A stretch of DNA of 64,000 nucleotides from an uncultured Nitrososphaeraceae archaeon (GCA_963765895.1 CAVXZB010000073.1:49879-113878); one strand, 5' to 3'. Shown: positions 20,664-44,433, counted from the stretch's first letter. Made by a program: numbers and translations. The notes: generated from the letters alone by a model not told the origin.

Positions 20664-23020
20664 ATGGTAGTTCAGGTCAGCTATCCAGGAGTTTATATTG
20701 TAGAAAAGCCAAGTGGCGTACATACAATAACAGGTGTGTCAACTTCCATTGCTGCATTTTTTGGACAAACACTCGAAGGTCCCGCAAATAAGGCCGTACC
20801 GATTATTTTCTCCGCTGGGTTTTGAGAAGACATTTGGAAAATCACACCCCGATAGTGAATTATCAACCGCAGTACGATTGTTTTTCGAAAACGGAGGTTC
20901 TGATTGTTATGTGGTCAGAGTCGTGAATGGTGGGAAAAAAGCCACTGCTATTTTAATGAATGAAAATGGACATAAAGTCCTAAATTTTGAAGCCAACGAG
21001 GTTGGCACATGGGGAAATGAAATAGGAATCGAAGTCGACTACAACACTTTACAATCAGAAGAAACGTTTAATCTGCATATTTACAGAATTAACGATGACG
21101 GAACTATAAACACAATTGAAGAATTCTTAAACTGCTCTCCTGATATTGATAGCCCAAAATTTGTCTGCAAATTAGTGAATCAAAAATCTAATCTCGTTGA
21201 TTGTAAACCTGAAGTCGACGCTGGTGCAACTGACAACGATTATAGACAGTCCACAGTCAAGCCAGGATATTCCGTCTCCAGAAAACCTCTAGATATTGGA
21301 CAGGCAGGGATTGATGAGCTAGCAAATATAATTTCGTCTGCATCTTCACAGAAATCTTTCAAATTCCAGATAAGTGTAGATGGTAGCCCGTTCTATGAGG
21401 TAGACCTGCATGATGCCTTCGCAGTCGGAGAACCCATCGCAACAGCTATGAATAACATCAAACAGCAAATTAACAAAGCTCTTCCTACTTCACTCGTAAA
21501 TTGTGTGAATGTAGAACTAATCAATATACCAGGAAGTTCGTCACCAGGAATAAAACAGCTTCTTAAATTTTCATCCAATACGCCAGATCAGAAGAGTATT
21601 GTTATTCAAAGAGCCTTCTCAAACGACCTTGCTGGACTAATAATGCTTGGAACCGAGCAGGGAGGAATAGAAAGATCCAGTTATGCACCTCTCCGTCCTG
21701 CTTCAAATGGAGTCATTTTCGATATCAACTTCATAGATCAGCTAGCTACAAAGTCACAGGATGCTGTTAATGAGATAATGCTTGATGGCAACTCCATAAG
21801 TCTAGGAACGAGTCTGCAAACCGTAACACCACCACTTACTACTGAGTGGTTTTGGTATAAGAGTAATCTGTCTGGTATTGAAGGAACAGATGGCATAAGA
21901 GAAAAATTTAGAATTATATCTAATTCAATAATTAATGCAAATCTCGGTTTTGATGCCTACCTTGCAGGATCAAGACTTGTAATAAAGAAAAGAGCAGGAC
22001 CAGCCAATTCTGTATCTATGCTCAGGACCGTGCCAGCCGCTGAAGATATTGGGCCATTTTTTAAGATAAATCCAAGACTTTACACATTAGATTCTGGTTT
22101 AGATGGCTCCCCTCCAGATGTCTCAACCTATCTTGGTAATGAGATCGATCACACAGGATTTTTCGCACTCGATCTTGTTGATCTGTTTAATCTCATGGTT
22201 ATTCCAAAGGATAAGAACCTTGATGAAGATGATTATAGGAGTCTTTGGGGACCAGCCAGCTCTTATTGTAAAGATCATAGAGCATTTTTAATCGTCGATC
22301 CACCAGAAAGCTGGGATAGTCCTATGAAGGTTTTAGATCCTATGGTGGGTATTAATTCACTCCGTGTAGGTCTAAACAAAGATTATGCCGCTGTTTACTT
22401 TCCTAATTTGATTATTAGAGATAGAGATGTTCTTAAAACTGTGGGACCGGGAGGAGTTATTGCTGGTCTGTATGCTCGTAATGATTCCTCTGGTGGAGGC
22501 GGTGTGTGGACAGCTCCGGCTGGACTCTCTGCTGATATCCGTGGCGGAATCTCGGATTTGGATTTATCATTGACAGACGCAGAAAACGGACCACTTAACA
22601 AGGCGGGTGTAAATTGCCTAAGAAAATTTCCCTCAGGAATCGTGAGCTGGGGTGCTAGAACTGTAGATGGAGCAGATGATTTTGGGTCAGATTGGAAATA
22701 CGTTCCTGTTCGTCGTTTGGCACTCTTCCTAGAAGAATCTCTTTACAGAGGCACGAAATTTGCAGTATTTATGCCAAATGATGAACCATTATGGGCTCAA
22801 TTGAGAGGCAGCATCACCACATTTATGAGAAGTCTGTTTAGAGTCCAGGCATTTCAAGGCACGACCGAAGAACAAGCCTTCTTTGTAAAGTGTGATAGCG
22901 AAACAACTACTGCAGATGATCAGAATAAAGGAATAGTAAATATTCTAGTAGGTTTTGCAGACTCTCAAACCAGCAGAATTTGTAGTAATAACGATACAGC
23001 AAATGGCAGGAGAAGCTTAA
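20664..23020 (+). CDS. eCIS contractile tail sheath protein (Afp2/3/4-like), ~784 aa, two +1 frameshifts
   Basis: True start MVVQVSYPGVYIVEKPSG at 20664; FFENGGSDCYVVRV, GVWTAPAG, WGART, WKYVPVRRL, FFVKCD; C-terminus LKPAEFVVITIQQ in the +1 frame. Confidence 0.93.
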
Positions 23021-23038
23021 ACGGAGGTGATTGATTAA

Positions 23039-23509
23039 TTGAGCGTAAGACCACTCTCTCTTATTGCTACGAATAGATTTCAACTAATAATGAACGGACA
23101 GCCAGTAGCGGCATTAAAAAAGGTGGGAACACTTCAGAGAACTACTACGCCGATCACTTATACAGATGCCACCACAGGTGTCGAGGTAAAGATGCCAGGA
23201 AATACTAAAATATCGTCACTTACCTTGGAACGCGGTCTGACCCGCGACGAAGGGTTTATTGAGTGGGCAGATCTAGTATTCTCCTCAAAAGATCCATATG
23301 AAAAAGAAGGTTTCAAGCGGGATTTAATGCTGGAAGTATTGAATAGTCAAGGCCATGTTGAGCATAGGTGGCTTTTAGAGGGCTGCTGGCCTAGTGAAAT
23401 CAAAGCTAATCCAGATTTGGACTCTGAAACAAATGCAATTGCTATTGAATCTCTAACCATCCAGTTCGATGCGATGTACAAGCAAGAAGTGCCGGCGACA
23501 AAATCATAG
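23039..23509 (+). CDS. eCIS tail tube protein (gp19/Afp1/5-like)
   Basis: KMPG...LTLERGLT, FIEW, WLLEGCWPS, DLDSETNAIAIESLTI; preceded by GGAGGTGA. Confidence 0.9.
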   Translation: MSVRPLSLIATNRFQLIMNGQPVAALKKVGTLQRTTTPITYTDATTGVEVKMPGNTKISSLTLERGLTRDEGFIEWADLVFSSKDPYEKEGFKRDLMLEVLNSQGHVEHRWLLEGCWPSEIKANPDLDSETNAIAIESLTIQFDAMYKQEVPATKS

Positions 23510-43500: not shown

Positions 43501-43805
43501 GCGTAAATGCTGCCATTCGCTTCAACACTTTTTTGCATTCGGCCACACTGAGAGCTTGTGATAACCGTCTTAGGGAAACAATGATACAAAGAGGGATATC
43601 ACCAGTATCACTATATTCAATTGCCATTGACATGAATAACACCTCAAACAACCAGGGTGATCACTGCATAGTAGCTTTGGGCAGCTCAGCTTCTTCTATT
43701 CCAGTAGTTAAAACTGGGAACCAAGTGTTAAATCCCTTAGGTTGCGAACAGCTACACGAGAATATATCTTCTAAAGCATCGGAGGTTCTTAGATCATATG
43801 AGTGA
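40546..43805 (+). CDS. DUF6519-domain tail fibre/tailspike with right-handed beta-helix, ~1085 aa, two +1 frameshifts
   Basis: MGDFSR...QQGRVLSDAD, EPALGGPDTT, YTGLTHNLYRIEI, DYWMFQVR; GGEICLLPGEH then Asn/Ile-rich beta-helix repeats. Confidence 0.8.
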
Positions 43806-44433
43806 TGAGAATAATAACGAAACTGTCAATCAAGCCATAGTGCTTTTGAATAGCGTAAGGGAAACGAGAGAGAATTTCTTGACTAGTCTAAACGATCTAC
43901 TCAAGCTCCGTAACACGCTGCTTGACAACGAGGCCAAAAGAATACAGGGTCTTTCTACCGAACCAGATGCTGATCCACGCATTAAAATGCTTGAAGGAAA
44001 TATCAAAGCTGCTGAAACATTGATTAATGCAACCTCTATTCAGATAGAAATGGGAAAGATATCTGTTCCTAGCCTAAAAAAAGGAGAGGTACTTGTCCAT
44101 GGACGGATAACCGAACCAAACGGCCATGGTATAAAAAATTATGTAGTTTCTTTGGTCGTTGAGGGCAAAGCCCTGGACGTAAAAAGTAAATCCGATGCTT
44201 CTGGATATTATTCTATTATTCTGCCTGCAACTATTGTAGATAATGTAAAGCAACATGATATTTTCGGATATGTATACCGTGGTACTGCGCTAGTTTACAA
44301 AGCTAACAATCCAATAAAGATAACAGATCAGCAACAAATTAAGTTTGAAGTAGTTCTTACTGAGGATGACATTAAGATGGTTCATCTTACAGAAAAATCC
44401 AAAAAGGAAACTGACAAGTTAAGAAAGAAATAG
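43798..44433 (+). CDS. Coiled-coil plus Ig-like (carboxypeptidase-regulatory-like) protein, last gene of the structural operon
   Basis: VHGRITEPNGHG...KSDASGYYSI; overlaps the fibre gene stop. Confidence 0.6.
   Translation: MSDENNNETVNQAIVLLNSVRETRENFLTSLNDLLKLRNTLLDNEAKRIQGLSTEPDADPRIKMLEGNIKAAETLINATSIQIEMGKISVPSLKKGEVLVHGRITEPNGHGIKNYVVSLVVEGKALDVKSKSDASGYYSIILPATIVDNVKQHDIFGYVYRGTALVYKANNPIKITDQQQIKFEVVLTEDDIKMVHLTEKSKKETDKLRKK

Follow-up and report, generated by a model that had tools for sequence, protein, structure and literature searches.

A contractile injection gene cluster of bacterial affinity on a tRNA-Ala island of an amoA-bearing Nitrososphaeraceae archaeon

Gene content of the contractile injection cluster

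We analyzed a stretch of 64,000 nucleotides (hereafter the window; GCA_963765895.1, CAVXZB010000073.1:49879-113878) from an uncultured Nitrososphaeraceae archaeon, in which we describe a gene cluster for a contractile injection system (CIS). The host assembly, G000, comprises 4.9 Mb in 88 contigs (88% complete, 2.4% contaminated) and carries an archaeal amoA. Once reading frames are corrected, positions 20664-44433 hold 18 colinear plus-strand CIS genes. An initial annotation had read these as a complete CIS without a phage head, and matches to Pfam families, to TIGR02243 and, through profiles, to the Protein Data Bank (PDB) bear this out; 11 of the 29 window open reading frames (ORFs) scanned with Pfam gave a family at E≤0.01, while PHROGs and NCBIfam scans of the window proteins added little.

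The cluster opens with the sheath gene (Cis2, 20664-23020), which encodes 784 residues when two extra letters (20799 and 22961) are left out and contains an inserted domain of ~290 residues. The sheath scores 25.9 bits in Pfam, just below the 26.9-bit cut-off, and its best phmmer match in the PDB is 9EZM (1.9e-52), followed by 8BKY/8BL4 (~4e-41) and then by the sheaths of PVC, Afp, AlgoCIS and tCIS. Next lie the tube protein (Cis1, 23039-23509; Phage_T4_gp19, 97 bits) and a T4 gp51-like/DUF6760 zinc-ribbon protein (23542-24439; 298 residues with 24058 omitted), the latter assigned by alignment to homologs that carry T4_baseplate, its profile giving no match in the PDB. A low-complexity protein (24439-25375; 311 residues with 24988 omitted) has no match in Pfam; from its position in the cluster and a conserved C-terminal motif, we infer that it is tape-measure-like. 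The cap or tail terminator (Cis16, 25386-26627) carries Pvc16_N (59 bits) and TIG, and is 42% identical over 418 residues to its homolog in an Ignavibacteriales metagenome-assembled genome (MAG; G527), one of three bacterial genomes used for comparison here, together with Plasticicumulans acidivorans (G528) and an Arenimonas MAG (G529). The cap is followed by a Cis15-like AAA+ ATPase (26630-28872; 746 residues with 27332 and 28708 omitted, homologs being 626-733 residues long; Pfam AAA, 97 bits, at 27393-28739) and by a 100-residue protein (28873-29175) recognized as an ORF only, with neither family nor homolog at the thresholds used.

The genes that follow encode parts of the tube base and baseplate. 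The putative tube initiator (29225-29885; 219 residues with 29554 omitted) corresponds to the N-terminal part of an Afp7/Cis7-type protein, and a profile built with its relatives matches 9rce_H, the “peptidoglycan-binding protein” chain of 9RCE, at 1.5e-3. A LysM-like protein of 93 residues (29956-30237) has no Pfam match and was found by profile search, which matched the LysM region of Kbp (7e-4) and tCIS All3321 (0.069). Profile search likewise identified the hub (30234-31370; gpD/VgrG N-terminal part) through the VgrG-type chains 7aef_q (1.3e-5) and 9rce_F (3.9e-5), and Pfam the OB-fold spike (31434-31910; Phage_base_V, 47 bits) and the gp25-like wedge protein (Cis9, 32315-32707; GPW_gp25, 43 bits). 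Between spike and wedge lies a PAAR-like, DUF4280-like tip gene (32010-32320), which has one frameshift near 32200 in a region of little read cover. The two large baseplate genes are Cis11, of the gp6/Baseplate_J type (32713-35216; 833 residues with 32942 and 35143 omitted), and Cis12 (35305-38078; 923 residues with 35673 and 36743 omitted). Both match TIGR02243 under its curated cut-off, at 2.8e-40 and 7.4e-26, respectively; Cis11 has in addition a weak Baseplate_J match at 32966-35164 and is 39-45% identical to bacterial homologs over its full length, and Cis12 is 49% identical to its homolog in G527 (an 873-residue open frame there, the ORF having 856 residues).

The last three genes of the set are assigned chiefly through bacterial homologs. 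A peripheral baseplate protein of ~800 residues, possibly P2 gpI-like (38125-40532), lies in three frames in the assembly (one letter, 38743, is omitted by reads) and is 48-65% identical to an 823-residue protein of G527, which itself has no match in the PDB. A fiber or tailspike-like protein of ~1070 residues (40583-43805), split over two frames, is 30-46% identical to a 1157-residue protein of G527 with DUF6519 (eBAP5) and Beta_helix domains, neither of which Pfam matched in the broken fragments of the window itself. The set closes with a 211-residue protein (43798-44433) predicted to be a CarboxypepD_reg-like β-sandwich from a weak Pfam match (1.1e-4) and 31% identity to a stretch of G528. 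Most of the component assignments first made for these genes stand; the PAAR-like call is weak (DUF4280 at 6e-4, below the cut-off and in the bacterial homolog only), as is the tail-I-like one (Tail_P2_I at 0.011 in one of 35 scanned ORFs, the output not specifying which), and the fiber is recognized through a bacterial homolog of up to 46% identity.

Aligned to the window, homologs from relatives shift from one frame to another. Four soil runs of a single study supplied short-read contigs that agree with the window at 99% or more (with adapter-like loose ends) and omit one letter at each of 12 sites (20799, 22961, 24058, 24988, 27332, 28708, 29554, 32942, 35143, 35673, 36743 and 38743); ten of these had already been deduced from homologs, and the remaining two fall close to where the ATPase and Cis11 genes end. 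Because these omissions restore every covered frame, we attribute the frameshifts to assembly error and rejected pseudogenization as their cause. With the 12 letters omitted, 14 complete ORFs lie between 20664 and 38078 (the check by reads extends to 39000, with scarce cover at 31673-32339). The only amoA copy in the genome (G000:C24:168102-168652) is similarly read in three frames, with two single-base shifts. One-letter insertions seem to be frequent in this assembly, those of the window falling within base runs of only 1-3 letters, and will lower estimates of completeness and gene calls throughout the genome.

Two further genes at the 3′ end of the cluster, both on the plus strand, are candidates for its payload. 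Effector 1 (44652-46454; 600 residues) combines DUF4157 (eCIS_core, 107 bits) with a weak OmpA-like domain and an aspzincin M35-like peptidase, and has an intact HExxH motif both in its DUF4157 part and in its M35-like end. Effector 2 (49675-51261) joins DUF4157 (eCIS_core, 89 bits), in which HExxH is also kept, to a C-terminal domain of ~290 residues; identification of the latter as a glutamine deamidase or Ntox11 was dropped, Atlas scores of 0.79-0.81 being at chance level. These are the only two DUF4157 genes in the genome. DUF4157 is described as a core domain associated with extracellular CIS (eCIS) and fused to toxins (PMC8213781), and DUF4157 proteins of a haloarchaeon are reported as secreted toxins dependent on its CIS (PMC11566945).

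An insertion sequence (IS) of the IS4/5 family (47298-48205, plus strand; DUF4096 and DDE families) lies between the two effector genes and has many copies in G000 at 70-86% identity. Another IS, of ~950 bp with a DDE_Tnp_1 transposase, occurs at 8349-9301 and 51537-52488; dozens of copies at 98-99% identity are spread across the assembly, one of them on the amoA contig, with older copies at 80-87%. Many G000 contigs end in this element, which probably explains their number (88) and part of the 4.9-Mb genome size.

PMC6899500 and PMC8213781 define eCIS, and we compared the locus with those definitions. Clustered here with a Pvc16_N cap (DUF4255) and an AAA+ ATPase are genes for sheath, tube, spike/hub, gp25 and Afp11-type baseplate proteins, and DUF4157 genes stand at the 3′ end. 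Judged by this gene content, the locus is an intact CIS of the Afp/PVC-related (“eCIS”) superfamily. The signature of DUF4255, ATPase and DUF4157 on which the first reading relied is present, albeit with the DUF4157 genes beyond the end that it set at 44433, and the name eCIS fits the gene content, though such markers do not establish an extracellular mode. None of the general scans of window ORFs gave a membrane-complex or ClpV family of type VI secretion systems (T6SS), in keeping with the reported lack of TssJLM and ClpV, for which no search by name was made.

A defective myovirus-like provirus, of which the cluster would be the tail module, could also be considered, given that all CIS derive from phage tails and that the island carrying this one, as set out below, has an integrase and lies at a tRNA gene. 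We consider this origin extremely improbable: Phage_capsid, Phage_portal, TerL_ATPase and Terminase_6N each gave zero matches in the whole 88% complete assembly, with positive controls (upholding the original statement that capsid, portal and large terminase are missing), and the Pvc16_N cap, AAA ATPase and DUF4157 proteins are markers of CIS rather than of phages.

Bacterial affinity and the separate archaeal clade

Of 600 candidate stretches from a scan of species-representative genomes, 591 proved to be relatives, and 79 of the best 80 of these are bacterial by title. From the sheath to the DUF4157 genes, the cluster is colinear gene for gene with the loci of G527 (L096 and L117), G528 (L047 and L118) and G529 (L038 and L119), at 21-65% identity; these share the gene order of the window and differ in having bacterial hosts with 53-72% GC and no ParB-like gene upstream. 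We saw no study of these three loci in the literature. All 17 fragments between sheath and Cis12 that have any match find their best one in a bacterial locus. Outside G000, the cap protein of the window has only weak matches (one at 5.8e-6 and one at 2.7e-4) among the 238 genomes of the family and a 401-genome sample of the phylum.

The sheath phylogeny separates the window from its archaeal relatives. In a tree of 96 rows, the window sheath and those of 13 bacteria make up a clade of 14 (SH-aLRT 100), the nearest rows being Plasticicumulans and Arenimonas, which have the same long sheath with an inserted domain; 15 Nitrososphaerales sheaths form another clade with one MAG labeled Bathyarchaeota. 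Uniting the window sheath with the 15 Nitrososphaerales sheaths costs 103 log-likelihood units and is rejected by the approximately unbiased (AU) test (p-AU 2.9e-5). The cluster is of a bacterial type and stands apart from that archaeal clade; the comparisons of its genes indicate that it was very probably acquired from bacteria.

The Ignavibacteriales locus (L096 9845-11386), closest to the window in most proteins, has a short sheath of 513 residues that falls in another sheath clade, and therefore there has been movement between loci that are colinear in other respects, either of the ~290-residue insert or of the sheath gene as such.

Sheath homologs occur in 19 of the 237 other genomes of the family (20 of 238 with G000, a count that includes G088, tree row L012, which is not the sole basis of any conclusion) and, across the order, in 18 of the 401 genomes sampled, with matches in six further families. 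Pvc16_N was found in 9 of the 237 at E≤0.001, 8 of them above the cut-off (10 of 238 with G000), and in none of the six other same-genus genomes. The Nitrososphaerales clade belongs to the same order of archaea and likewise carries sheath, tube, cap, ATPase, gp25, Cis11/12 and DUF4157 genes; it differs in its short sheaths, which form their own clade, and in arrangement, the loci of G071, G133, G255 and G498 departing from the window in gene order, with 21-54% identity (tblastn best hits) to window proteins. This clade (loci L008-L036) is thinly spread through the order and includes a one-contig genome. In five genomes with an archaeal-clade sheath (G087, G129, G138, G118 and G186; L023-L026, L029-L032 and L035-L036), no other window protein was matched within 20 kb on either side and Pfam Pvc16_N is absent; this “sheath only” group may reflect low query sensitivity, a more divergent CIS or a provirus.

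One gene links the window to the archaeal loci. A ParB-like gene of archaeal type (19307-20182, plus strand; ParB_N and HTH_ParB in Pfam) lies 480 bp upstream of the sheath and is 46-48% identical (tblastn) to ParB-like genes beside the CIS loci of G071, G133 and G255 (L019 378-1241, L027 4540-5415 and L022 ~15400-16250), that is, beside three of the four archaeal-clade loci examined, while it has no match in 80 mostly bacterial CIS loci. The family has at least four copies in four of five genomes searched, with paralogs in G000, including on the amoA contig. This gene, a neighbor of the CIS in the window and in the archaeal loci despite the different origin of the window CIS, may serve as a regulator or belong to a mobile backbone that these loci share.

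The claim that no eCIS has been characterized in this lineage holds in so far as we found no paper describing a CIS in ammonia-oxidizing archaea or the Nitrososphaerales clade; the sheath homologs in other family genomes qualify it. A 2019 mBio paper on archaeal conflict systems reportedly may mention such loci. As for earlier cataloging, a 521-residue sheath is listed for one Nitrososphaera genome in PMC9230969, where it appears without further analysis, and the CIS surveys consulted report only euryarchaeal CIS or CIS of “one archaeal phylum”. The device is of a known kind; what appears to be new is its host.

A tRNA-Ala island in the archaeal chromosome

The cluster lies on an element with clear borders. 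A 13-bp direct repeat at 12072-12084 (attL) is copied exactly at 56684-56696 (attR), where it overlaps the 3′ end of a tRNA-Ala(CGC) gene (56687-56759, minus strand, ARAGORN), the integration target; an integrase of the archaeal phage integrase family (55226-56410, minus strand; Phage_integr_3, 2.5e-6) stands at the right end. In the same-genus genome G023, the homolog of window 11802-12087 directly abuts tRNA-Ala, providing an empty site. On the basis of these repeats and the empty site, we place the island at ~12085-56683 (44.6 kb), an arrangement that has the hallmarks of a tRNA-integrated island: the repeats take in the 3′ end of the tRNA gene, an integrase lies alongside, and a relative shows the site unoccupied. 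Chance occurrence of the 13-bp repeat (E 0.27) had been entertained and was dropped once the G023 site appeared.

Both flanks are conserved in same-genus genomes; for the 5 kb beyond tRNA-Ala on the right side, conservation is 78-94% in all six of the others. Together with the archaeal amoA, this shows that the suggestion of an ammonia-oxidizing archaeal host was right in substance. G025, another species of the genus, has a 68%-identical integrase next to this tRNA-Ala (L127 2293-3258), followed by DNA that is unrelated, and tRNA-Ala may be a recurrent landing site. A separate G000 contig (C37:1-7303) copies the right flank (window 56686-64000) at 98.9%, starting inside attR at 56686, which suggests heterogeneity at this flank; C37 may represent a strain variant without the island or with another one.

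In composition, the cluster resembles its host: at 39.8% GC, its tetranucleotide correlation with large G000 contigs is r = 0.94-0.96, compared with -0.50 to 0.31 for the bacterial relatives (49-72% GC). The Illumina-type contigs of the four runs have similar depth over the ParB-like gene and the cluster. A wrong joining of bacterial to archaeal DNA, by mis-assembly or binning, might be suspected where every structural protein is closer to bacterial than to archaeal proteins and where the assembly is error-rich and full of repeats. It is nonetheless very improbable in view of the site-specific integration signature at both island ends and the empty site in a relative, of the archaeal ParB-like gene just upstream of the sheath with its paralogs on the amoA contig, and of the host-like tetranucleotides and even depth; moreover, no repeat was found at the ParB-sheath junction. 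The possibility of a chimera, which the initial annotation had itself raised, is countered by these results and by the IS copies shared with the amoA contig, and we are confident that the CIS cluster resides in the archaeal chromosome on the island.

Residence need not mean function, and the cluster might be a silent passenger of the island, unexpressed or unassembled and awaiting decay. Its bacterial origin, its absence from the six other same-genus genomes and its position among IS elements, with one between the effector genes, would suit such a passenger (no RNA run occurs among the listed holders of the stretch, which is neutral either way). All 14 read-checked genes are nevertheless complete, including ORFs of 784, 833 and 923 residues at 40% GC, the composition is near that of the host, and a relative at 81% DNA identity keeps its frame. 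This relative, a metagenome contig (L129; 41.5% GC) aligned over 2.4 kb with its ATPase in one frame, implies that a related low-GC carrier exists. Complete genes, host-like composition and an in-frame relative together fit continued selection in low-GC hosts, and we regard a silent passenger as rather unlikely.

Proposed mode of action

We propose the following mechanism from the predicted gene functions. The hub, OB-fold spike, PAAR-like tip, gp25, Cis11, Cis12 and peripheral protein would form the baseplate, the initiator and LysM-like proteins would seed the tube, and the tape-measure-like protein would set tube length. The 784-residue sheath would polymerize around the tube, with the Pvc16_N cap closing the end and the AAA+ ATPase aiding either assembly or payload loading. 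The payload would consist of the two DUF4157 proteins, one of which ends in an M35-like zinc peptidase. Upon binding of the DUF6519/β-helix protein to a target surface, contraction would drive the spike through and deliver the payload. Particles are quite probably made by this archaeon and, should they be made, we lean slightly toward their being released and acting extracellularly. The statement as a whole, a bacterial CIS on a tRNA-Ala island in an amoA-bearing archaeon with the extracellular mode favored, we hold to be fairly likely.

The extracellular mode is favored because DUF6519, described in PMC12923769 as eBAP5, a fiber anchor often followed by β-helix folds, is present in the fiber homolog, and because no membrane anchor is recognizable. 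We infer this mode and go no further, since the closest studied systems are membrane-anchored or cytoplasmic and gene content does not fix mode. The modules of the window are also those of Afp, PVC and AlgoCIS (6RAO, 6J0B and 7ADZ), a class reported to be defined by cap, AAA ATPase and fibers, and the C-terminal domain of the sheath matches theirs at 1e-30 to 1e-17; however, these systems are far more distant in sequence, have several sheath paralogs and other fibers, and belong to Gram-negative hosts acting on eukaryotes.

The best solved match of the window sheath, the Cis2 chain 9EZM, comes from the T6SS of Halogeometricum borinquense (PMC11566945), and the machine could accordingly be a membrane-anchored, contact-dependent one that fires through its own envelope into a neighbor. 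The two systems share an archaeal host, DUF4157 proteins (secreted toxins in the haloarchaeon) and, as the haloarchaeal one is reported, an eCIS-like gene content; an archaeal envelope of membrane and S-layer would be thin enough for firing through. The H. borinquense system is, in contrast, euryarchaeal, and its anchored mode is reported to correlate with a conserved protein of six transmembrane (TM) segments. No haloarchaeal-type 6-TM anchor gene was found on the island by crude hydropathy scans of an error-rich assembly (hydropathy being the only means used, without an anchor sequence for direct comparison), and no multi-TM ORF lies in the cluster; outside the cluster, the sole TM candidate of the island is one 96-residue ORF in which two stretches are hydrophobic. 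As the window cluster also encodes the DUF6519/β-helix fiber-type protein and its colinear relatives are bacterial, we judge the anchored, contact-dependent mode unlikely, if conceivable.

Action inside the producer, by stress firing and regulated cell death, is the mode reported for the Streptomyces CIS (PMC10066040, PMC12237407; 8BKY, 8BL4, 9GTP-9GTS). That system has the lineage-II set Cis1, 2, 7, 8, 9, 11, 12, 15 and 16, its sheath is strongly similar to that of the window (the second-best solved match, and the best for the archaeal-clade sheath, at 3.8e-79), and it too is classed as an eCIS by sequence (“type IId eCIS”). It is described, however, as cytoplasmic, devoid of fiber genes and dependent on the bitopic protein CisA, encoded at the usual fiber position, and as acting by intracellular cell death. 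In the window, a fiber-type gene occupies the place of CisA, and a hydropathy scan of the ORFs downstream of the baseplate genes gave no TM segment, and hence no recognizable single-pass membrane protein. Regulated death would also be harder to rationalize in a unicellular archaeon, making a cytoplasmic mode decidedly improbable here.

Against our preferred reading, of an acquired, resident and extracellular CIS, stand several points. The CIS is predicted here from its genes; its extracellular mode draws on a fiber domain seen only in a homolog, while its best solved sheath match belongs to a membrane-anchored archaeal T6SS. No lysis gene was recognized, and a bacterial device would have to leave or cross an archaeal S-layer envelope. 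As regards integrity, three further frameshifts (near 32200, 39900 and 41950) fall outside the read-checked set, and the four runs may come from the very samples that were assembled, in which case they correct errors and are not independent sightings. As regards origin and residence, the grouping for the AU test was set after the tree had been seen, though by kinship codes and not by the tree; in composition, the cluster ranks among the lowest 5% of chunks of 25.8 kb (3 of 63 as low); the donor may itself have been low-GC, so that host-like composition does not date the transfer; and among the contig records listed, none crosses the gap between the ParB-like and sheath genes with 31 letters to either side, the records meeting at 20404/20405.

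A still wider proposal, that this soil ammonia oxidizer uses an acquired bacterial extracellular injection system against bacteria, with the older archaeal clade separate and contractile injection a recurrent, selected trait, is tentative and rather doubtful. A hint of a bacterial target comes from effector 1, with its weak peptidoglycan-binding OmpA-like domain and zinc peptidase.

The usual picture of ammonia-oxidizing archaea is one of slow, peaceful autotrophs, and little is known of how they deal with their neighbors. The window locus and the separate clade place CIS in a second archaeal lineage, one of global importance for the nitrogen cycle, and contractile injection, if the proposal holds, would offer a handle on how chemolithoautotrophs compete in soil. 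The apparent passage of this 26-kb multi-protein machine from bacteria into archaea has a vehicle that can be identified, by its defined borders and by the empty site, which makes the event and its consequences testable.

Outside the island, the window also encodes a dual-specificity phosphatase of 189 residues (1633-2202), which matches the “Swiss Army Knife” and polymorphic-toxin DSP-PTPase families (4.7e-25).

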